Part shown: positions 10,797-40,608 of the stretch, piece after piece
Numbering within the stretch: position 1 is the stretch's first letter
How the letters are laid out: each line of letters starts with the position of its first letter
From: a virus
Direction: 5' to 3' (one strand)
IMG/VR virus record: IMGVR_UViG_3300045199_000074
Length of the DNA stretch: 64,000 nucleotides
Notes under the pieces: model-generated
Databases searched by the model: none
Seen by the model: the letters and a program-made list of their open reading frames with translations, nothing else
Told to the model about the DNA's origin: nothing
Made by a program: the position numbers and the translations under genes

Positions 10797-11450
10797 ATGG
10801 ATGGGCTTCAAATTAGCTCACTGAATTCTAAAAACACTAATCAGTATGTTTCTAAAGCCACTCTTAGATTGTTGAATGTCTATCAAGAACGCAATCATGT
10901 CTCAGATGTGTCCTTAAAAACATTGCTAGATGAGATTCTGTTAGAAACAGATGATGCATATAAACTTGCGGCCTCAAGTCTTAGGACGGATAAGCATACT
11001 CCAGATCACATAGAAGCTGAGTATAAACGCTTTCTGGCGGCACGCGGCCTGACTGCTACCAAGGTCAATATTGTATCATCTCGTTCAGTTTCTGCTCCAC
11101 AGTTGGAAACACGGCCTCCAGCTGAAATAATTGATATACCATTGCCAGTCCGTGGTCGCGGTCGTGCGCGTAAGCTTCGTCCTATGTTCAATGGGCATGA
11201 ACTTCCTAAGAAGGTCACGTCTATTGAAGAAACTATAACTGTAAAATGGATTATCTGCCTGGAAGACGGCAAGAAGGTGAAAGATTTGTCTCATCACCTA
11301 GTTTCATTTGGCTTGACCCCGAGCCAGTATCGTAAAAAATGGGGTCTTCCAGATAGTTATCCTATGCATGCGCCTCAGCTGATACTGCAACGAGGAGCTA
11401 CTTTCGAGGTGGATTACGTGACGGGGTTACGCCGTCGTGTTCGTAGTTGA
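10797..11450 (+). CDS. Ros/MucR-family regulator with N-terminal extension
   Basis: C-terminal IICLEDGKKVKDLSHHL..FGLTPSQYRKKWGLPDSYPMHAP; SD AGGAGG. Confidence 0.9.
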   Translation: MDGLQISSLNSKNTNQYVSKATLRLLNVYQERNHVSDVSLKTLLDEILLETDDAYKLAASSLRTDKHTPDHIEAEYKRFLAARGLTATKVNIVSSRSVSAPQLETRPPAEIIDIPLPVRGRGRARKLRPMFNGHELPKKVTSIEETITVKWIICLEDGKKVKDLSHHLVSFGLTPSQYRKKWGLPDSYPMHAPQLILQRGATFEVDYVTGLRRRVRS

Positions 11451-13061: not shown

Positions 13062-13096
13062 AAAAAAGAAGAAGGCGAGCATCGGGCTCGCCTTCT
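13062..13096 (-). terminator. intrinsic terminator closing the tRNA cluster 1 transcript
   Basis: minus strand AGAAGGCGAGC-CCGAT-GCTCGCCTTCT-TCTTTTTT. Confidence 0.85.
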
Positions 13097-13292: not shown

Positions 13293-13367
13293 TGGTGCTG
13301 CAGGAGAGAATTGAACTCTCGACTTCCTCCTTACCAAGGAGGTACTCTACCACTGAGTTACTGCAGC
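13293..13367 (-). tRNA. tRNA-Thr(GGT)
   Basis: cloverleaf; CCTCC-TT-GGT-AA-GGAGG; encoded CCA. Confidence 0.97.
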
Positions 13368-13395
13368 AATACGATATTGATGGAAACGATGTTTT

Positions 13396-13471
13396 TGGTG
13401 GCAGTAGATAGGATTGAACTATCGACCTACGGCTTATGAGTCCGCCGCTCTCCCAACTGAGCTATACTGCC
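13396..13471 (-). tRNA. tRNA(CAT), elongator Met or Ile2
   Basis: cloverleaf with G1-C72 pair; CT-CAT-AA loop; CCA; Met versus lysidine-Ile not resolvable by eye. Confidence 0.9.
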
Positions 13472-13485
13472 AAAACTATGGTAAC

Positions 13486-13560
13486 TGGTGTCAATGGGAG
13501 GACTTGAACCTCCGACCACACGCTTATCAAGCGCGTGCTCTACCGCTGAGCTACACTGAC
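13486..13560 (-). tRNA. tRNA-Ile(GAT)
   Basis: CGCGC-TT-GAT-AA-GCGTG; CCA. Confidence 0.96.
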
Positions 13561-13568
13561 ATTTATTC

Positions 13569-13643
13569 TGGTGCGTGCAGGAAGGCTTGAACTTCCGACC
13601 TCTCCGTTATCAGCGGAGTGCTCTACCTCTGAGCTATACGCGC
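13569..13643 (-). tRNA. tRNA-Ile(GAT)
   Basis: CTCCG-CT-GAT-AA-CGGAG; CCA. Confidence 0.95.
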
Positions 13644-13667
13644 AAACTGTTAAACTATTAAATTGTT

Positions 13668-13742
13668 TGGTGGGTTCGGCAAGGATCGAACTTGCGGCCT
13701 TCGCCATGTCAAGGCGACGTTCTACCACTAAACTACGAACCC
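13668..13742 (-). tRNA. tRNA-Val(GAC)
   Basis: TCGCC-TT-GAC-AT-GGCGA; CCA. Confidence 0.97.
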
Positions 13743-13746
13743 GAAT

Positions 13747-13917
13747 TGGCCTGCCGAGCGGGATTTGCACCAAGAGCCACCACAGCTCCTTTTTCGCTAC
13801 CTTCCACCCAACTGACCATTTGATGATCTCGCTGCCCTTGGTTGAAGGGCTAGATTTCATCGGCCGAGTTCCTCACGGAATCCTCTGGTGGCTGCCCATC
13901 GATTGGGCCTTCGGCAG
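13747..13917 (-). ncRNA. 171-nt tRNA-like RNA with a large structured insert in place of the anticodon loop
   Basis: acceptor CTGCCGA/TCGGCAG + G + CCA; D-like arm GCCC-N7-GGGC; stem GCCACCA/TGGTGGC enclosing ~100 nt; T-like loop GG-TGCAAAT-CC with a weak stem. Confidence 0.6.
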
Positions 13918-13961
13918 TTACTGTTGCGAGATCGCCAATTCAGGCGCTTCATCGCGGAATT

Positions 13962-14037
<76 letters not shown>

Positions 14038-14049
14038 ATATGAGTTAAT

Positions 14050-14155
14050 GACTTTACCGCCGTGCAGGAATCGAACCTACCTTGGAACCGACAGGCCGCG
14101 CCCAGGTCCTCTTATGGATTCACACCACCCAGTTGGAGCATCCGGCAGTAAAGTC
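14050..14155 (-). ncRNA. tRNA-like element lacking CCA, extended closing stem (pseudo-tRNA or mimic)
   Basis: GACTTTACTGCCG/CGGCGGTAAAGTC closing stem; intact T arm GTAGG-TTCGATT-CCTGC; no canonical anticodon arm. Confidence 0.5.
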
Positions 14156-14202
14156 TCCGACGCATTCGCGCATCGGGATGATCGTTGACCGTGATGCCGA
14201 AG

Positions 14203-14279
14203 TGGTTGCGGGAGGAAGATTCGAACTTCCGGCCTTCAGGTTATGAACCTGACGAGCTACCTGGCTGCTCTATCCCGCG
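14203..14279 (-). tRNA. initiator-type tRNA-fMet(CAT) 1
   Basis: C1:A72 mismatch; TCAGG-TT-CAT-AA-CCTGA; ACCA. Confidence 0.93.
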
Positions 14280-14477
14280 AAAGGGGTCGAGGCCTGAATG
14301 ATCCCAGTACATCCGTGGTAATCTTTACGGGCCTCTACGCGGCAACGAATGCCGCAGTCTCATTGACGTCGCAATCATTGCGCCATCTTAATAATTGAGG
14401 GAAAACGCTTATCATTTCACACACTGCGGAAACGTTTCGAACCGCCGATGGGCTACTTTACTCGCGATTTCCCAAGC

Positions 14478-14555
14478 TGGTTGCGGAGGTCGGATTCGAA
14501 CCGACGACCTCAAGGTTATGAGCCTAGCGAGCTGACCTGGCTGCTCCACTCCGCG
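14478..14555 (-). tRNA. initiator-type tRNA-fMet(CAT) 2
   Basis: C1:A72 mismatch; CTAGG-CT-CAT-AA-CCTTG; ACCA. Confidence 0.92.
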
Positions 14556-14704
14556 TTAGCTTAGATGCCATATCTGGCAAATTCTGTTGGCGTTACTCTC
14601 CACGCCTGAAGTCTAGATCATTGCGATCACGGAAGCCCGATTAAAATACTTGGGCTACACGCATCCCTCTCGGGAGCGGAATATGCCGACACACGTTCGA
14701 CATC

Positions 14705-14779
14705 TGGTTGCGGAAGAGGGAATCGAACCTTCGACCTTCGGGACATGAACCCGATGAGCTGCCACTGCTCTATTCCGCG
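14705..14779 (-). tRNA. initiator-type tRNA-fMet(CAT) 3
   Basis: C1:A72 mismatch; three G-C pairs in TCGGG-TT-CAT-GT-CCCGA; ACCA. Confidence 0.92.
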
Positions 14780-14819
14780 TTTCTTATGACGTCCTTAAAC
14801 GTCAAATTTAGGTAATTAT

Positions 14820-14893
14820 TGGAGCGGATAGAGGGAATCGAACCCTCGTCTTCGACTTGGAAGGACGTTGCTCTACCATTGAGCTATACCCGC
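14820..14893 (-). tRNA. tRNA-Gly(TCC)
   Basis: GCGGGTA acceptor, U73, CT-TCC-AA loop; anticodon stem has two mismatches. Confidence 0.9.
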
Positions 14894-15015
14894 ATTTGTA
14901 ATTAGCCCCATCCTTGAAATAAGCTCCGACTGCTCTGAGCATATTTCTCGCTTAATTACATTGAGCCACCTTGAAATGTGTGCGGCTCCCCCTCTCCCAT
15001 TTTGGGATTAGAATT

Positions 15016-15091
15016 TGGTGGAGAATATCGGACTCGAACCGATCACCTACTGCGTGCAAAGCAGTCGCTCTCCCAGATGAGCTAATTCCCC
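15016..15091 (-). tRNA. tRNA-Ala(TGC)
   Basis: G3:U70; ACTGC-TT-TGC-AC-GCAGT; CCA. Confidence 0.97.
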
Positions 15092-15152
15092 ATAGTCCTG
15101 ATCATGGGTATTTAATTATTTATCGTCAAGGACTAATCCGATAAATAATTAT

Positions 15153-15227
15153 TGGAGCGGGCAAAGAGATTCGAACTCTCGACTTTCACCTTGGCAAGGT
15201 GACACTCTACCACTGAGTTATACCCGC
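15153..15227 (-). tRNA. tRNA-Gly(GCC)
   Basis: TCACC-TT-GCC-AA-GGTGA; U73; CCA. Confidence 0.97.
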
Positions 15228-15256
15228 AATTATTGACATCTAATGCTGTAATTAAT

Positions 15257-15268
15257 TGTCAAAGAAGA
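15257..15268 (-). promoter_or_regulatory. boxA-like antitermination site (internal)
   Basis: TCTTCTTTGACA, resembles rRNA boxA. Confidence 0.55.
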
Positions 15269-15428
15269 ACTTTTTAATAATGACACTCTCAGCACTAAAT
15301 GTATCTTCAAAATTCCTAACTGGCTGTTTTAGAACACTATATGGGCATGCACGAAAACTATTATCATCAGATTGTCGTTCTTCTGAGCTTCCATTTTTTC
15401 GCATACTGCACTCCTCTCAATTGCAATG

Positions 15429-15505
15429 TGGTACGTCCTGACGGGATCGAACCGCCGACATTCTCCGTGTAAAGGAGACGCTACTACCAGCTGAGCTAAG
15501 GACGC
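15429..15505 (-). tRNA. tRNA-Val(TAC)
   Basis: TCTCC-TT-TAC-AC-GGAGA; CCA. Confidence 0.95.
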
Positions 15506-15570
15506 TTATTTCATTCTGCTCGCCGCGATATTAATATCCGCGAGCTTTCAGGAAAATCCTGAAGTGAAAT

Positions 15571-15649
15571 TGGCTTGGGTGGCAGGACTCGAACCTGCGA
15601 CAAGACCCTGGTTAACAGCCAGGCGCTCTACCAACTGAGCTACACCCAA
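15571..15649 (-). tRNA. tRNA-Asn(GTT)
   Basis: CCTGG-CT-GTT-AA-CCAGG; G73; CCA; enlarged variable loop. Confidence 0.95.
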
Positions 15650-15747: not shown

Positions 15748-15759
15748 TGTCAAAGAACA
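15748..15759 (-). promoter_or_regulatory. boxA-like antitermination site (leader)
   Basis: TGTTCTTTGACA, preceded by hairpins TGAACG-GCGA-CGTTCA and CTCTC-TACC-GAGAG. Confidence 0.7.
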
Positions 15760-15805: not shown

Positions 15806-15873
15806 AAGTTAAACGAGATAAAAACATAAGTCAACAATAAAAATATAAAAAATATAATTATTTCAATGACTTA
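15806..15873 (-). promoter_or_regulatory. internal sigma70-type promoter of tRNA cluster 1 with AT-rich tract and upstream motif
   Basis: TTGACT(15834-15829)-17 nt-TAACTT; TAA-N4-TTGAAA at 15873-15861. Confidence 0.7.
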
Positions 15874-16002
15874 TCTTAATGAATGCACCTTCCCCGTTCG
15901 CCTCTTTCGATGCGTTGGAAAGTTACTTCAGTGCTAGGTTGTTGCAGCTACTGATAGCCGCTCCGTTGCCGTCGTCGTCCATTGTTGTTTTTCCCAGAGG
16001 TC

Positions 16003-16038
16003 AAAAGAAAAGGCCCCTTCCGTTTCCAGAAGGGGCCT
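16003..16038 (-). terminator. attenuator terminator of tRNA cluster 1
   Basis: AGGCCCCTTCTG-GAAA-CGGAAGGGGCCT-TTTCTTTT. Confidence 0.9.
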
Positions 16039-16065
16039 CGGTTCTTCAGAACCTTTGGGATTTTG

Positions 16066-16188
16066 CTACCTCGCGTTAATCCCTACTTCGACACCCTTCT
16101 GTGCGGCATGCACGACAATACCACGTCCGCCCGCCATATTGGCGGTGACGTTGGTGGTATTAATCGCGATAGCTTGCACGAAACGCAT
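16066..16188 (-). CDS. putative attenuator leader peptide MRFVQAIAINTTNVTANMAGGRGIVVHAAQKGVEVGINAR
   Basis: 40-aa ORF with upstream AGGAG, between a promoter and the terminator; 31/40 residues are A/V/G/I/N/T/M. Confidence 0.8.
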   Translation of the reverse strand: MRFVQAIAINTTNVTANMAGGRGIVVHAAQKGVEVGINAR

Positions 16189-16233
16189 CTGAAAACCTTT
16201 TTCTCCTGAGCTTTAATAGCTCTATTTTTAATA

Positions 16234-16260
16234 ATTATACTGACGGCGAGATAATGTCAA
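16234..16260 (-). promoter_or_regulatory. sigma70-type promoter of leader 1
   Basis: TTGACA-15 nt-TATAAT (short spacer). Confidence 0.65.
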
Positions 16261-23492: not shown

Positions 23493-23560
23493 TTTATTGC
23501 ATATTAAAAAACTGTCGTCAATATATAAAATTCATTTTCTTTAATATTTTCAATAACTTA
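23493..23560 (-). promoter_or_regulatory. internal promoter of tRNA cluster 2 with upstream motif
   Basis: TTGACG(23521-23516)-17 nt-AATAAA (weak -10, TG extension); TAA-N4-TTGAAA at 23560-23548. Confidence 0.6.
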
Positions 23561-23613: not shown

Positions 23614-23667
23614 TCATTTGGTTTTGTCACGTTCTCGTTCGTCGCTATCGTCGTCGCCTTCTGGCAT
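23614..23667 (-). CDS. acidic micro-ORF MPEGDDDSDERERDKTK
   Basis: strong SD AAGGAG; 8/17 residues D/E. Confidence 0.5.
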   Translation of the reverse strand: MPEGDDDSDERERDKTK

Positions 23668-23710
23668 TGACTTCTCCTTTCTTTCTCAATCATTTCGGGT
23701 TGTAACTTGG

Positions 23711-23740
23711 AAAATAAAAAAGGGCCGCAATTGCGACCCA
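23711..23740 (-). terminator. attenuator terminator of tRNA cluster 2
   Basis: GGGTCGC-AATT-GCGGCCC-TTTTTTATTTT. Confidence 0.85.
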
Positions 23741-23796
23741 AAAAAGAAATTACCTATCTTTTTAACGGCCGCGTGCTTGACGGCCGCCGATAACGG

Positions 23797-23862
23797 CTAC
23801 CGCCGGGTGATATCTTCTTCCCGACGTTCTTCAGTACGAATGATTAGTGATATGCCGTTCAT
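23797..23862 (-). CDS. putative attenuator leader peptide MNGISLIIRTEERREEDITRR
   Basis: SD GGAG; GAA GAA CGT CGG GAA GAA GAT block; lies between a promoter and the terminator. Confidence 0.8.
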   Translation of the reverse strand: MNGISLIIRTEERREEDITRR

Positions 23863-23884
23863 TTTTAACTCCAATGTTATGTAT

Positions 23885-23913
23885 GTTTTAAATGACCCTT
23901 TAGAAACAGTCAA
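23885..23913 (-). promoter_or_regulatory. sigma70-type promoter of leader 2
   Basis: TTGACT-17 nt-TAAAAC. Confidence 0.65.
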
Positions 23914-23983
23914 GTTTTTCCATTTTTCTATATGTTATTTCATAGTTTTCTATTACATTCGCCTTGAAAGATTTGAGGTGATC

Positions 23984-25150
23984 ATGAAAATCGACATTGC
24001 AGACCCTGGCATTCATGTAATTGGTGAACTTTTATCTAGCGGCGGGTATCAATCTCGTCTCGTTGGAGGTGCTGTTCGCGATATGCTAATGGGTATGAAA
24101 CCTAAAGATATGGATTTAGCGACCGATGCATTGCCAGAAATCGTAATGGAATTAGCATCTAGACAGGGTTATCGGGTGATACCAACAGGTCTTCAGCACG
24201 GCACTGTGACAATCGTTTATGATGACATCGGTTATGAAGTGACCACTCTTCGAAAAGATGTCGACACAGACGGCCGTCATGCAACTGTGGAGTATGTCAC
24301 CGATTTTGCCGAAGATGCTGCGCGTAGAGACTTCACCATTAACGCTATGTCAGCCTCTGTTGATGGCGAAGTTTATGATTATTTTGGTGGTTTGAAGGAC
24401 CTTGAGGAAGGTCGTGTCCGATTTGTAGGTGATGCACACCAGCGTATTGAAGAGGATTATCTGCGTATCCTGCGCTTCTTTCGTTTTCGAGCTCGGTTTG
24501 GAGGCGAAGAGACCGAACTCGATCTGAAGGCGATCAAAGATAATTCCCACGGCCTTTCCGGCATCTCAGTTGAGCGTGTCTGGAGTGAAATTGATAAAAT
24601 ATTACAATATTCAAATGGTACAGACCAGTTGGCGTTAATGGCCGATTTGGGTGTTGCCCAGGTTGTCGGCCTCCCGATTGACGAAGACAACATCACAATT
24701 GCGCGTGATGCAAGGGAGTTTGGCGCTCGTTCATCTGTGATGTTGGGCATTCTGGCAGGAAATGAAGATTATGCTGGAAGTCTTGCAACGCGCTGGAAGT
24801 TGTCCAATTCCGAGATGAAAGATGCAGTCTTGGCGTCTCAAATCATTGCTATTTCCGAATACGAACCCCATTACTGGATGACTCAGGCAGTAAACGGTCT
24901 TGATCCCACTGTTGCATGTCCTATTCTGTCTGCAATTGGTGCTCATGAAGCTGCAAAGGCTTTGTCTGGAGATATTCCCGTTTTCCCTCTTAAGGGGCGT
25001 GATCTCATTGGTTTAGTCGATAAAGGACCGACGATGGGAGCTGTTTTACGTGATGCCAACTCAAAGTGGATTGACTCCGGATTTAAGCTTACAAAAGAAG
25101 AGCTCATTGCCGATATTGTTAATGTTGGCCCAACTGTTGGTAGGCTGTAA
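23984..25150 (+). CDS. cca: CCA-adding tRNA nucleotidyltransferase (class II)
   Basis: VGGAVRD, KDMDLAT, EVTTLR.D, DAARRDFTINA, EDYLRILRFFRF; start ATG 23984 after GAGGTG. Confidence 0.93.
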   Translation: MKIDIADPGIHVIGELLSSGGYQSRLVGGAVRDMLMGMKPKDMDLATDALPEIVMELASRQGYRVIPTGLQHGTVTIVYDDIGYEVTTLRKDVDTDGRHATVEYVTDFAEDAARRDFTINAMSASVDGEVYDYFGGLKDLEEGRVRFVGDAHQRIEEDYLRILRFFRFRARFGGEETELDLKAIKDNSHGLSGISVERVWSEIDKILQYSNGTDQLALMADLGVAQVVGLPIDEDNITIARDAREFGARSSVMLGILAGNEDYAGSLATRWKLSNSEMKDAVLASQIIAISEYEPHYWMTQAVNGLDPTVACPILSAIGAHEAAKALSGDIPVFPLKGRDLIGLVDKGPTMGAVLRDANSKWIDSGFKLTKEELIADIVNVGPTVGRL

Positions 25151-29195: not shown

Positions 29196-31562
29196 TTAAA
29201 GTGAAGGGCCAGATCTGACCAAGTCATGATCCAAATGTGCTTCGTAAGCCTTACGAAGGGCAATAATATCGGCTTTCAAGGTGTCGTTGCTCTGCGTCAG
29301 ACACCAATCACGGAAGCTATGAGCAAGCTCGATCTCAGCGTCATCAGGTTGGCCTCCATCTGGTTTGCGTGTATGCGACCATGTGAATTCATTACCCTTT
29401 TCTCGTGATGCAACGATACGATCTTTCACGCTGCGCATCTGCTTCCAGAACGCATAAAATGGCAGCTTGACCTTGGTCATGTAGCCAACAGCATCTTCGA
29501 TCACCAAGCCTTCCACATGCTCACCGCCAACGCGGTAGTTCATGTCAGTAGTCGCCTTCTTGTGCCAGCCAGCGAACGAAGCAGCATTCTGGAATGTCAT
29601 CGCTAGCTTCTTCGTTTCGAGACCAAACTTTCGGCCAACAGCCTCGACCACGCTGAAACCTGCCTTCTCAAAACTTTCCGAACGACGAATAATATCGAGC
29701 AAAACTATTTTTGGTTTATCGTACTCGATCATGTGAGGGTCATTGAGCGGATCAATCACTTCCCACGTCATCGAAGATTCTGTATCACGAAGATAGCGAC
29801 GGATTTTCTCCAACTGAACGGCGCTCAGCTGGTTAATTGCAATATTCTTGAAAATATCAGCGAAATCACCATCTGGCGTGGATTTTGAAGCGATAAACAA
29901 GCTGTCTGTCTTTTCATCGTAACCCATATTTCCAAGGAAACCGTTATATTTCACGTAAAGTTTGATCGGGAATTGCATGTTTTTGGCAAGGTTTGCTATT
30001 TCAGTTTCTTCCCGTTCGCCCACATTGAAAAATTTATCGTATCCACGAGAAACTATTTTGCTCGTTTTCCGTTCAAGAAAAAGCCCGCGCGCCTTCACAA
30101 CAACATCATCCCAAGAACGGTCAAAAAACACCTTCTTGGTGAAATTAAGCGAATATACATGCGGGAATCGTTCGCTCGACTTTTCTCGAACGCCTTCATG
30201 TTCATGCATAGACTTCAGGAGACTTGAATCCATCTCTGTCGATTTTCCGTCAGGATTGATAATCCAATGGGGCAGCATTTTACGTTGAGCCTTTCTAACT
30301 TCTGTAATCCTGGTTTCGAGAGCCAGTCGCTCCTTGAGTGGTCGATAGACATGGTTCTTGAATGCTTTGGTGTTCCAACCATTGCCATCGAGAATGCAAA
30401 TTCGCAGATTGCCGCCGTGTTCGACTGAGTCTTCGAGATTGAACGAGTGTTCGGTGGCCGCAATATCAACATTGCCGTGATTGCGGTGTCCGTGAACCTG
30501 GAAACCTCGCTTGCTGTTGCGCTCGAACTGCTCATCAATCGGGTCTTCCCAGTGGCCTGTGCCATGGGAATATTGATTCAGAGAAATCAGGTGAGGCTTA
30601 TCGGGGAATGTGCTTAATCCTGCGTGGGTAACGAGAACCTCAGCGCCCTTGAAGCTGTACTGGAGAAATTCCTTAGCCTTCTGACATACGGCTTCAGCAT
30701 CAGCAGGAGTTATGCCTGCTTCGATAAGCTGCGGAAGCGTTCTGAGGGCGAACTCTCCACTTTTTGCATCTTCACCACGCGCCCAACGGTCGAGATGATC
30801 TTCATGATTGCCCCATAGAAGGGTGACGTTCTCCCTGTGAAGAGCATTGTCGACGAACCAGCGCATCACTTTGCCGTTTTCGATGCCTCGATCAAGCAGG
30901 TCTCCCACAAAGACGTACTTGTAGTCGTCATCAAAACCATTCGCGAGTGGCCCGCCTTCTCCCGCCAATACGGTGAAGCAACCTTGCAGGTCTCCAATGT
31001 GAATTACGCCCTTATAGCGGTCGCTAAAGTCATGAACGGGCTCACGTAGCCACGCATCCAGTTCACTTATGTGACTACCGTCTTCCTTGCCGTTAATAAT
31101 TGTAATGCCATCGACATCGTCTCTTATGCCAGCTTCGATGAGCTGTGCATGCATTTCTCTAACTCTGAACTCAGAAACCCGGTTAACTTCCTGGCGTTCA
31201 CTGTTTCGTTTCAACGCCAATTCTACTGGAATTGAAGACATATCAAGAACAGCGATTTCATACCGATGTGGTTTTGCCATATCAGCTAAACGCTTCAAGT
31301 TTGAACGTTCTATGAGCGTCGTGTCTATTGCTAGTGTCTCCCCTCTAGACATCCGCTCCGATGCGAATTGATTAAGCATCGCGAAAGCTCTCTCATTGAC
31401 ATCCTGATTAACGATCATTTGCCCTTCGCTTGTCAGGAATGGTGCCGCGATTGTCGATCTGATATTGTCGGCGGACAGCGTCCATTGCTCTATCCCTATT
31501 GCCTTGAGAGCGTGTGACTTTCCAGATCCAGGTTGGCCGCGCGTGATTATTAATTTTCTCAT
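29196..31562 (-). CDS. RNA repair enzyme: polynucleotide kinase + metallophosphoesterase + RNA ligase
   Basis: GQPGSGKS kinase; GDLQG/GDLLDRG/GNHE phosphoesterase; ARGLF, KFFN, KYNG (motif I), EGLVI, KVK ligase motifs. Confidence 0.9.
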   Translation of the reverse strand: MRKLIITRGQPGSGKSHALKAIGIEQWTLSADNIRSTIAAPFLTSEGQMIVNQDVNERAFAMLNQFASERMSRGETLAIDTTLIERSNLKRLADMAKPHRYEIAVLDMSSIPVELALKRNSERQEVNRVSEFRVREMHAQLIEAGIRDDVDGITIINGKEDGSHISELDAWLREPVHDFSDRYKGVIHIGDLQGCFTVLAGEGGPLANGFDDDYKYVFVGDLLDRGIENGKVMRWFVDNALHRENVTLLWGNHEDHLDRWARGEDAKSGEFALRTLPQLIEAGITPADAEAVCQKAKEFLQYSFKGAEVLVTHAGLSTFPDKPHLISLNQYSHGTGHWEDPIDEQFERNSKRGFQVHGHRNHGNVDIAATEHSFNLEDSVEHGGNLRICILDGNGWNTKAFKNHVYRPLKERLALETRITEVRKAQRKMLPHWIINPDGKSTEMDSSLLKSMHEHEGVREKSSERFPHVYSLNFTKKVFFDRSWDDVVVKARGLFLERKTSKIVSRGYDKFFNVGEREETEIANLAKNMQFPIKLYVKYNGFLGNMGYDEKTDSLFIASKSTPDGDFADIFKNIAINQLSAVQLEKIRRYLRDTESSMTWEVIDPLNDPHMIEYDKPKIVLLDIIRRSESFEKAGFSVVEAVGRKFGLETKKLAMTFQNAASFAGWHKKATTDMNYRVGGEHVEGLVIEDAVGYMTKVKLPFYAFWKQMRSVKDRIVASREKGNEFTWSHTRKPDGGQPDDAEIELAHSFRDWCLTQSNDTLKADIIALRKAYEAHLDHDLVRSGPSL

Positions 31563-31711: not shown

Positions 31712-32539
31712 ATGAGCAGAGTGGATGACGTCCTTGGTGATGAGATCAAGGCACATGAAAAATTGAATTCGGATCGTGCGGCAAATATCGGTGATCCTGT
31801 AGTGATACGTGTTGACGGCGCTTCATTTTCCAAGTTTACGCGCAATGCATCAAAACCATTTGATGAACGCATTTCTGCTGCAATGGTTCACGCAACAAAA
31901 TCTACTGTTGATGAATTTAATTGCCGTTTAGGCTATACGCAGTCTGATGAAATCAGTTTTTTGCTTTATAGCTCTGATCAGGAACTCCCTTTAAGTGGTC
32001 GTTATGAAAAATTGGCAAGCCGTTTTGCGGCACACGTAACTGCTCATTTCTTGAAAAAGGGTCTTGAGTTATTTCCTGAGCTAATTGGAGAAAGGCTTCC
32101 TTCTTTTGACGGCCGTGCAATGTCTTTTCCAACATTAGATTTGGCCGCCAAAGCAATCCTATGGCGTGAACTTGATGCTCGGAGAAATGCCGTCAGCATG
32201 GCTGCGCGTTCTGTCTTTTCGCCAAATGAACTTAGTGGGCGATCATCATGGGAACAGCGAAAAATGATGTCTGCACGCGGTCTGGAATTCGACGACTTTC
32301 CAGAAACTTTCAGGCGCGGCGCTTTTGTTCGGCGGGTGAAGGTAGTGAGAGAATTGACGGTAGAGGAGCTGTCTCGGATTCCTGAAAAACACCGACCAAA
32401 TGGGCCAGTTGAACGCTCAAGTATCGAGCAGGTTACTATGCCTAATTTGTCTCTTGTTGATAATCTTGCCGATGTCCTTGTTTTCAATGCTGATCCTATC
32501 GTCGCGGAACGCAAGTTTGCATTAGCCGTTACGGGGTAA
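31712..32539 (+). CDS. Thg1-like protein (tRNA-His guanylyltransferase / 3'-5' polymerase family)
   Basis: IRVDGASFSKFT, KPFD, GYTQSDEIS, FDGR, WRELDARRN. Confidence 0.92.
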   Translation: MSRVDDVLGDEIKAHEKLNSDRAANIGDPVVIRVDGASFSKFTRNASKPFDERISAAMVHATKSTVDEFNCRLGYTQSDEISFLLYSSDQELPLSGRYEKLASRFAAHVTAHFLKKGLELFPELIGERLPSFDGRAMSFPTLDLAAKAILWRELDARRNAVSMAARSVFSPNELSGRSSWEQRKMMSARGLEFDDFPETFRRGAFVRRVKVVRELTVEELSRIPEKHRPNGPVERSSIEQVTMPNLSLVDNLADVLVFNADPIVAERKFALAVTG

Positions 32540-40554: not shown

Positions 40555-40608
40555 CTAGGATGCGCAGTGCTGTGGTTTTCGTTTAAGTGCAGTCATAAAA
40601 GTTGACAT
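40555..40608 (-). CDS. putative attenuator leader peptide MSTFMTALKRKPQHCAS
   Basis: SD AAGGA; AAA CGA AAA block; followed by alternative 1:2, 2:3 and 3:4 stems. Confidence 0.7.
   Translation of the reverse strand: MSTFMTALKRKPQHCAS

Follow-up and report, generated by a model that had tools for sequence, protein, structure and literature searches.

A predicted seven-amino-acid leader-peptide attenuator of a 14-tRNA operon, with matched leaders ahead of tRNA clusters on related plasmids

Results

Gene content of the window and of the tRNA operon

The analyzed sequence, referred to here as the window, is the whole 64,000-nt stretch of the IMG/VR virus record IMGVR_UViG_3300045199_000074. It has a G+C content of 44% and encodes the DNA polymerase III alpha subunit, RecA, MutL, UvrD, a sigma factor and ThyA, as well as a Ros/MucR protein and a DotA/TraY protein. 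The gene adjacent to the leader described below has relatives on the megaplasmids of R. leguminosarum, M. extorquens AM1 and Bosea, and shares 89% identity with a relative on a 1.19-Mb contig of Mesorhizobium sp. SP-1A. We infer that the window represents a large conjugative plasmid of Alphaproteobacteria; further clusters of its family were examined in relatives. A CCA-adding-type enzyme (23618-25150), a kinase/phosphoesterase/T4-type RNA ligase fusion (29196-31562) and Thg1 (31712-32539) lie near the tRNA clusters and together form a set for tRNA maturation and repair.

The 14-tRNA operon (Table 1) specifies exactly the seven amino acids that form the leader set. Three of its four CAT tRNAs have the unpaired C1/A72 of the initiator type. 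The fourth resembles, by identity rules, what we take to be an elongator Met tRNA, in which case the cluster has no reader of AUA codons; the absence of ATA among the 26 Ile codons of 13 homologous leaders fits such a cluster. The three initiator-type tRNAs (14779-14203, minus strand) differ in their anticodon stems and loops, and three G-C pairs are found in one of them only; speculatively, these tRNAs are possibly cleavage-resistant variants. Long GC-rich spacers separate some of the tRNA genes (14190-14060 and 13960-13745, minus strand), and one of them ends in a T-loop-like word that could mark a degenerate tRNA or a structured RNA missed by ARAGORN and Rfam.

Table 1. Annotated and predicted features of the attenuator locus and of two sister leaders in the window
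Feature	Position	Strand	Basis or remark
Promoter P1, sigma-70 type, predicted (TTGACA, 17 nt, TAATTA)	16232..16260	minus	Top-scoring site and conservation
Candidate ribosome-binding sites (AGGAG 14 nt and AAGG 7 nt upstream of ATG)	16196..16207	minus	Sequence
Leader ORF, 40 codons	16188-16066	minus	ORF list and composition count
Control-codon run, residues 6-21, exclusively Ala/Ile/Asn/Thr/Val/Met/Gly	16126..16173	minus	Composition
Conserved hairpin inside the coding region	16110..16167	minus	RNAalifold consensus
Antiterminator 5' strand, predicted, codons 30-33	16090..16101	minus	Folds and swap test
Hairpin holding the leader stop codon, enclosed by the antiterminator	16057..16083	minus	Folds
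Small hairpin enclosed by the antiterminator	16040..16053	minus	Folds
Intrinsic terminator, core -22.4 kcal/mol	16003..16039	minus	Hairpin 16039-16010 and U tract
ORF2, 19 aa, conserved acidic start	15923..15982	minus	
Conserved motif about 39 nt upstream of P2	15862..15873	minus	
Promoter P2, predicted (TTGACT, 17 nt, TAACTT), 3' of the terminator	15806..15834	minus	
boxA-like antitermination motif	15748..15758	minus	Second copy near 15265
14-tRNA operon (Asn, Val x2, Gly x2, Ala x2, Ile x2, Thr, CAT x4)	13293..15649	minus	
Operon-end terminator, likely	13070..13096	minus	
Sister leader, Glu/Asp tRNA cluster (5/20 residues Glu/Asp)	23797..23862	minus	Terminator 23739-23722
Sister leader, Lys tRNA cluster (Lys-Arg-Lys)	40555..40608	minus	Weak terminator 40528-40504

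Composition of the leader peptide

The leader contains seven Ala, six Val, five Gly, four Ile, four Asn, three Thr and two Met residues, so that 31 of its 40 residues belong to the amino acid set of the tRNA operon, and it contains no Leu, Ser, Pro, Asp, Cys, Tyr or Trp. The residue counts, the run of 16 consecutive in-set codons and the missing residues given in the first-pass annotation were all borne out by the sequence. Against a background taken from the window's own genes, in which 41% of residues are in the set, the probability of 30 or more in-set residues among 39 is 6.9e-6. None of the 16,208 windows of 40 residues taken from the long ORFs of the 64-kb window reached 31 in-set residues. 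The codon choice proposed earlier was likewise confirmed, with ACC for all three Thr codons and ATC (once) or ATT (three times) for all Ile codons. The accompanying statement that Thr-GGT is the only Thr tRNA holds within the window; in relatives, Thr-CGT/TGT occurs in another leader-headed cluster.

No Pfam or NCBIfam family was matched by the leader peptide and no Rfam family by the leader element. The Rfam Thr_leader model (RF00506) reached 21 bits with an E-value of 0.21, below its gathering threshold of 55 bits, and the T-box covariance model found nothing in the window either at gathering threshold or up to an E-value of 5.

Conservation among homologous leaders

We compared 13 leaders of the 14-tRNA cluster type, comprising the window, six named genomes or plasmids and six metagenome contigs. 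The metagenome motif scan returned 43 loci, with the tRNA cluster at seven and a lone unrelated tRNA at two; two loci were dropped, L044 because it nearly duplicates the Mesorhizobium locus and L066 because its leader is cut off. The neighbouring nuclease gene was found at 34 genome loci, two of which have the tRNA cluster within 10 kb. In viral contigs, the protein scan gave 73 candidate stretches of which none was confirmed, and the motif scan gave no matches. The terminator pattern was found in none of five further genomes, a result that does not prove its absence there. Contig depth is flat over genes, leader and tRNAs (three of 18 RNA-labelled runs and one of unrecorded kind) and does not represent a transcript signal.

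All 13 homologues have a TTGAC or TTGAT promoter word at the position of P1 and a GC-rich terminator; their open frame spans 26-40 codons, and a purine-rich strand lies close to its stop codon. A GGA(G) box at a long Shine-Dalgarno spacing precedes most of the leaders and is weak in the Thalassospira homologue. Promoter and in-frame short leader ORF, upstream elements of an attenuator, are found at all 13 loci, as is the terminator between the leader and the downstream genes, which in the window begins 28 nt after the end of the leader ORF. These downstream genes are tRNAs, so the locus departs from the classical definition, in which biosynthetic enzymes or synthetases are regulated.

Within residues 6-21, 199 of 208 residues of the 13 related, and hence not independent, homologues are in the set at a mean pairwise peptide identity of 47%, and among residue pairs that differ, 519 of 554 remain in the set. 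What is conserved is the composition and not the peptide sequence. Conservation of the RNA without its reading frame, the pattern named in the first-pass annotation as evidence against an attenuator, was not seen, since a matched open frame is present in all 13 homologues. A double-glycine-type peptide role considered for the conserved MAGG residues was rejected because their codons build the inner hairpin and because the residues are missing from the Bosea leaders.

The region between the terminator and the first tRNA

Three features located between the terminator and the first tRNA, namely ORF2, a second promoter and a boxA-like site, were absent from the first-pass annotation. The first six residues of ORF2 are identical at ten of the 13 loci with third-position variation in the Gly and Asn codons, although seven of these ten loci had been retrieved with a pattern that fixes the first codons. 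In the 14-tRNA cluster type ORF2 opens with three Asp residues, and the second ORFs of the Phe/Arg and Glu/Asp clusters are rich in the amino acids of their own cluster. A GAC/CGA repeat is common to the second ORFs (15982-15923, minus strand, in the window; L085, L099, L106, L003 and L114) and is read as Asp in the 14-tRNA cluster type and as Arg in the Phe/Arg clusters.

The TTGAC of P2 lies 166-205 nt past the terminator in all 13 homologues (176-181 nt in nine of them), and the region upstream of it is AT-rich. P2 likely gives basal tRNA transcription that bypasses the switch, so at the 14-tRNA cluster the attenuator may control a supplement only. The motif at 15862..15873, present in 11 of the 13 homologues and also ahead of the Glu/Asp cluster at 23560, resembles the IHF consensus and is a putative site for this protein. 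A Ros/MucR-domain protein is encoded at 10797-11450 on the plus strand, 1.8 kb past the operon end; as a speculation, it could bind the AT-rich stretch before P2.

Among the matches listed, the boxA-like motif accompanies 16 of 17 clusters with at least nine tRNAs versus one of 25 shorter clusters. It also occurs approximately 250-320 nt before the 16S rRNA in two host genomes, in both of the retrieved regions that contain a 16S 5' end together with its leader. In rRNA leaders, boxA confers NusB/NusE-dependent resistance to Rho, according to the available text of PMC12360218.

Predicted RNA switch

In folds of the nascent RNA, the 5' arm of the terminator is paired with the leader segment CAGAAGGG(U)GUC (16101-16090), and this duplex encloses two hairpins, one of which holds the leader stop codon. 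The antiterminator proposed in the first-pass annotation was recovered in this respect, with both enclosed hairpins; the strength of its duplex, by comparison, is borderline against shuffled versions of the window's own sequence: equally good pairing arises in 29 of 500 synonymous recodings and in 13 of 500 base shuffles. In none of the 13 homologues does the duplex beat 95% of synonymous recodings. The proposal that the matched codons lie mainly upstream of the antiterminator agrees with our count of 24 out of 31.

Ribosome stalling was modelled at each codon by keeping a 28-nt footprint unpaired. With the ribosome stalled on the window's leader, the predicted antiterminator fraction is 18-95% at codons 1-20, 0-65% at codons 21-26, no more than 9% from codon 27 onward and 2% at the stop codon; its loss beneath the footprint is in part built into the model. 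Stalls at codons 21-24 yield little antiterminator, and the Gly codons 20, 21 and 23 fall at the border of the predicted sensitive zone. Every one of the 13 homologues reaches at least 82% antiterminator for some stall in the first half of the leader and 0-34% at the stop codon. An antiterminator that is exclusive with the terminator and decided by ribosome position is accordingly a property of the model in 13 of 13 homologues.

Without a ribosome, the predicted antiterminator amounts to 0-21% in seven homologues and 50-99% in six, including 70% in the window, and the behaviour of the untranslated RNA is therefore not conserved. At equilibrium the complete terminator prevails for every ribosome position, so the switch would have to be kinetic.

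The hairpin in the coding region excludes the antiterminator strand and possibly acts as a pause or 1:2-like hairpin. Five of its eight outer pairs are changed on both sides, and for this hairpin and the terminator together the nine both-side changed pairs exceed the values of all 500 shuffles; both counts refer to a structure derived from the same alignment. The antiterminator helix is 90% paired in the unedited MAFFT alignment with no both-side changes, and all 500 shuffles score as high. The covariation suggested earlier as a check was missing from the unedited alignment. A one-base register shift reveals two G-C to A-U swaps in the window and Mesorhizobium, a single lineage, and in a strand-and-arm swap the window strand pairs with its own arm at -18.9 kcal/mol versus -11.2 kcal/mol with the majority arm. 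More generally, a leader end paired with its own terminator arm beats the ends of same-type homologues in 25 of 39 comparisons (Wilcoxon p = 0.0065), and across all cluster types the own leader-arm pairing beats other-type pairing in 33 of 40.

Leader-headed tRNA clusters on related plasmids

tRNA clusters were mapped on four plasmid records and four genomes, for which our listings give at least the clusters described here. Leaders were sought by a composition-blind rule that requires a hairpin with a U tract and an ORF ending just upstream. Among the matches listed, this rule found a leader with a Shine-Dalgarno-like word at 42 of 51 clusters of at least two tRNAs, versus four picks, none of them with such a word, at 20 host chromosomal tRNA loci. 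The nine misses are the window's Lys cluster, Bosea Trp/Cys, Rhizobium Gln/Gln, AM1 Ala/Val/Ala and five Salipiger clusters. By eye, short ORFs are visible at the Bosea Trp/Cys, Rhizobium Gln/Gln and M. extorquens AM1 three-tRNA clusters; they were left uncounted. The start or the frame was wrong in five picks; four of these were fixed by eye, and the fifth, Bosea ANAM02 Ser/Leu, was excluded from the counts.

Seven cluster types were distinguished: Ala/Gly/Ile/Met/Asn/Thr/Val, Asp/Glu, Lys, Trp/Thr/Cys/Arg, Ser/Gln, Leu/Pro/His/Tyr and Phe/Arg. Together they cover all 20 amino acids on the replicons of Mesorhizobium, Pararhizobium, Rhizobium and Thalassospira. When the seven leaders are assigned to the seven clusters in every possible way, with background frequencies estimated by us, the true assignment ranks first of 5040 in Rhizobium, Pararhizobium and Mesorhizobium and third of 5040 in Thalassospira. 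Single leaders score best on their own cluster for four of seven in Pararhizobium, three of seven in Rhizobium, four of seven in Mesorhizobium and six of seven in Thalassospira, the mis-rankings arising mostly because Arg and Thr occur in several clusters. In the curated set, in which three tRNA lists end at locus ends, 40 of 41 leaders hold every amino acid of their own cluster among the matches listed.

The codon class in the leaders follows the isoacceptors of the cluster. Among the Thr codons, ACY accounts for 24 of 27 in leaders of Thr-GGT-type clusters and ACR for 15 of 20 in those with Thr-CGT/TGT (Fisher p = 1e-5, a value that overstates significance because the sequences are related). 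Similarly, Arg codons are AGR in 11 of 14 cases with Arg-TCT and CGN in 22 of 25 with Arg-ACG/CCG. The leaders also change with the gene content of their clusters. In Bosea RAC05, where Ser tRNAs join those for Leu, Pro, His, Tyr and Val, the leader core contains all six amino acids; the counterpart cluster of Bosea ANAM02 has no His, Pro or Val tRNAs, and its leader core likewise has none of these residues. The four-tRNA cluster of Bosea (Ala, Asn, Ile and Met) lacks a tRNA for Gly, and Gly is likewise missing from residues 6-21 of its leaders; the leaders do retain Thr and Val, so that the match is imperfect. At the Ser/Gln and Trp/Thr/Cys/Arg clusters, 12-39 nt separate the terminator from the first tRNA and there is no P2 in between; the leader route appears to be the sole route to these tRNAs.

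Two further clusters of this kind lie in the window. The Glu/Asp cluster (23862-23614, minus strand) is headed by its own leader and terminator and also has a second ORF, acidic in composition, as well as a second promoter, an arrangement conserved in four relatives. The leader of the Lys cluster (40608-40504, minus strand), found by eye, contains a motif that recurs in four relatives.

Salipiger mucosus (L120-L121, G004:C9) carries approximately 35 tRNAs in mixed clusters for which the blind rule gave no matched leaders: five of six clusters had no pick and one had an unmatched pick. This is a tRNA array organized differently from those of the other plasmids. The contig differs from that of the marker gene, and these clusters may belong to another element. 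Solitary CAT tRNAs without a matched leader, distant from the clusters, were noted at L087:704-779, L103:4157-4232, L107, L109 and L118, and possibly encode an AUA-reading Ile tRNA.

Alternative explanations

An origin of the leader composition in chance, or as a by-product of a purine-first (RNY) codon bias or of hairpin constraints, is very improbable. Codons of all seven amino acids do begin with a purine, as do 201 of 208 core codons, and the coding region forms a conserved hairpin. The RNY core codons, however, are in the set in 133 of 133 cases compared to 76% in the window's genes, and such a bias would also yield Asp and Ser, whereas the core has no Asp, Ser or Glu. Clusters with pyrimidine-first codons (Ser/Gln and Leu/Pro/His/Tyr) have matched leaders of their own. 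This explanation is largely refuted by the cross-match of leaders and clusters together with the chromosomal control, and the other reading frames score only 0.18-0.29.

The two remaining alternatives are both unlikely, the second marginally less so. Leader and terminator might constitute a stand-alone small gene or small RNA, with the tRNAs transcribed from P2 only, as the presence of P2 in all 13 homologues with its AT-rich upstream region and boxA-like site would allow, along with a strong terminator that prevails at equilibrium. This reading sits poorly with a peptide of 47% identity whose composition is nevertheless held and which matches no protein family; the leaders, moreover, are distinct for each cluster and fit its own tRNAs, and the Ser/Gln and Trp/Thr/Cys/Arg clusters leave no space for P2. 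Alternatively, the switch may be real and follow another logic, either with stalling that promotes termination or with a second step at ORF2, such as Rho access or pausing over P2. Amino acid starvation is not cured by more tRNA, and the other logic gains further from the conservation of ORF2, from its enrichment in cluster amino acids at the Phe/Arg and Glu/Asp clusters, from the near-constant distance between terminator and P2 and from the low antiterminator yield of window stalls at codons 21-24. Against it stands the trp-type geometry of all 13 homologues, with control codons upstream and the antiterminator strand at the 3' end of the ORF; a second step, in addition, would supplement the attenuator reading rather than replace it.

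Proposed mechanism

The unit at the 14-tRNA operon probably works as a trp-type transcription attenuator in which the ribosome is the sensor and which would increase the supply of tRNA. The multivalent attenuator put forward in the first-pass annotation is supported by the matched frames in 13 of 13 homologues and by the strand-and-arm swap. That reading is incomplete, as the unit is one of seven matched attenuators per plasmid and a second promoter lies 3' of its terminator.

RNA polymerase would initiate at P1, as its consensus and conservation indicate, and a ribosome would translate the leader, in keeping with the conserved frame and the ribosome-binding site. An unpaused ribosome would cover codons 30-33 or the stop hairpin; no antiterminator is then predicted, and a transcript of about 220 nt would end at the U tract. 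When usable tRNA for Ala, Ile, Asn, Thr (ACC), Val, Met or Gly is lacking, the ribosome would pause within codons 1-20, and the strand 16101-16090 is predicted to seize the 5' arm of the terminator before the 3' arm is synthesized. The polymerase would then transcribe ORF2 and pass P2 and the boxA-like site before reaching the 14 tRNAs, and this read-through would supplement the basal supply presumably provided by P2. The role of the unit is probably to recover decoding separately for each group of codons whenever host tRNAs run short, stay uncharged or are cut; the tRNA maturation and repair enzymes are encoded in the window as well.

Because matched leaders head most tRNA clusters of the related rhizobial megaplasmids, extra tRNA is likely made upon slow decoding. 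On balance, we lean towards a broader interpretation in which these plasmids carry a modular feedback on tRNA supply: seven operons, each preceded by a test track on which a ribosome reads the operon's own codons and each retuned as tRNA genes move, would sense missing or cut host tRNAs and replace those only, with repair enzymes encoded alongside.

Discussion

In bacteria, control of tRNA transcription is generally portrayed as global and exerted at the promoter. Ribosome-dependent leader-peptide attenuators include thrL and ilvL of E. coli, and the pheST leader attenuator senses charged tRNA for a single amino acid and controls a synthetase. The pheST leader thus shares with the present system the sensing of charged tRNA to control the translation machinery and differs in its synthetase target and its single amino acid. 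Further ribosome-dependent examples are trpL-trpE(G) of S. meliloti (PMC6614838) and hisL (PMC12360218), and ilvL of C. glutamicum is a multivalent leader attenuator (PMC11857589), as described in the available parts of these papers.

As far as those sources describe them, the trpL, hisL and ilvL systems resemble the present one in having a short ORF with control codons, an antiterminator overlapping the ORF end and an intrinsic terminator, with a pause favouring read-through. Compared with these systems and thrL, the target here is a set of tRNAs instead of biosynthetic enzymes, and seven amino acids are represented instead of one to three. The codon class follows the isoacceptors, and a plasmid-borne set of seven covers all 20 amino acids. 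A second ORF and a promoter lie past the terminator, and termination of the untranslated RNA is not conserved.

The T-box riboswitches similarly read tRNA-specific charging through a terminator and antiterminator (PMC2494555). They bind tRNA directly without translation, whereas here the ribosome would be the sensor and no T-box match was found; term look-ups in PMC2494555 and PMC7583486 returned no tRNA genes as T-box targets. The trn operon of Anabaena likewise consists of accessory tRNAs on a megaplasmid and is induced under translational stress (available text of PMC8421152 and PMC10272220). It is controlled as one block by the repressor TrcR according to the accessible portion of PMC8421152, in contrast to the codon-group-specific RNA control predicted here, and the words 'attenuat' and 'leader' are absent from the main text of that paper. 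Another parallel is found in phages, whose tRNAs and repair enzymes counteract the cleavage of host tRNA, again with tRNAs and an RNA ligase on a mobile element (passages of PMC10264068); it is plausible that the plasmid system serves the same purpose. Those passages describe no regulation of the phage tRNAs.

In a search mainly at abstract level, with thin coverage of subscription journals, we found no published account of leader-peptide attenuation of tRNA genes. The same search gave no paper on the tRNA clusters of these plasmids, which may be listed in the tRNA-array tables of PMC8421152 and PMC4758250. The attenuation mechanism itself is textbook; the tRNA target, the valency and the set of seven operons lie outside the textbook cases.

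A feedback that couples tRNA transcription to decoding speed in a codon-specific way would be a novel application of attenuation. The seven-amino-acid leader probes how many signals a single attenuator can integrate, and the leaders are ready-made reporters of scarce tRNAs. Cultured carriers are R. leguminosarum TP16 (pRlX5), Bosea RAC05 and Mesorhizobium SP-1A. Such a feedback would bear on why plasmids and phages carry tRNA arrays and when they use them, and would make this question directly testable.
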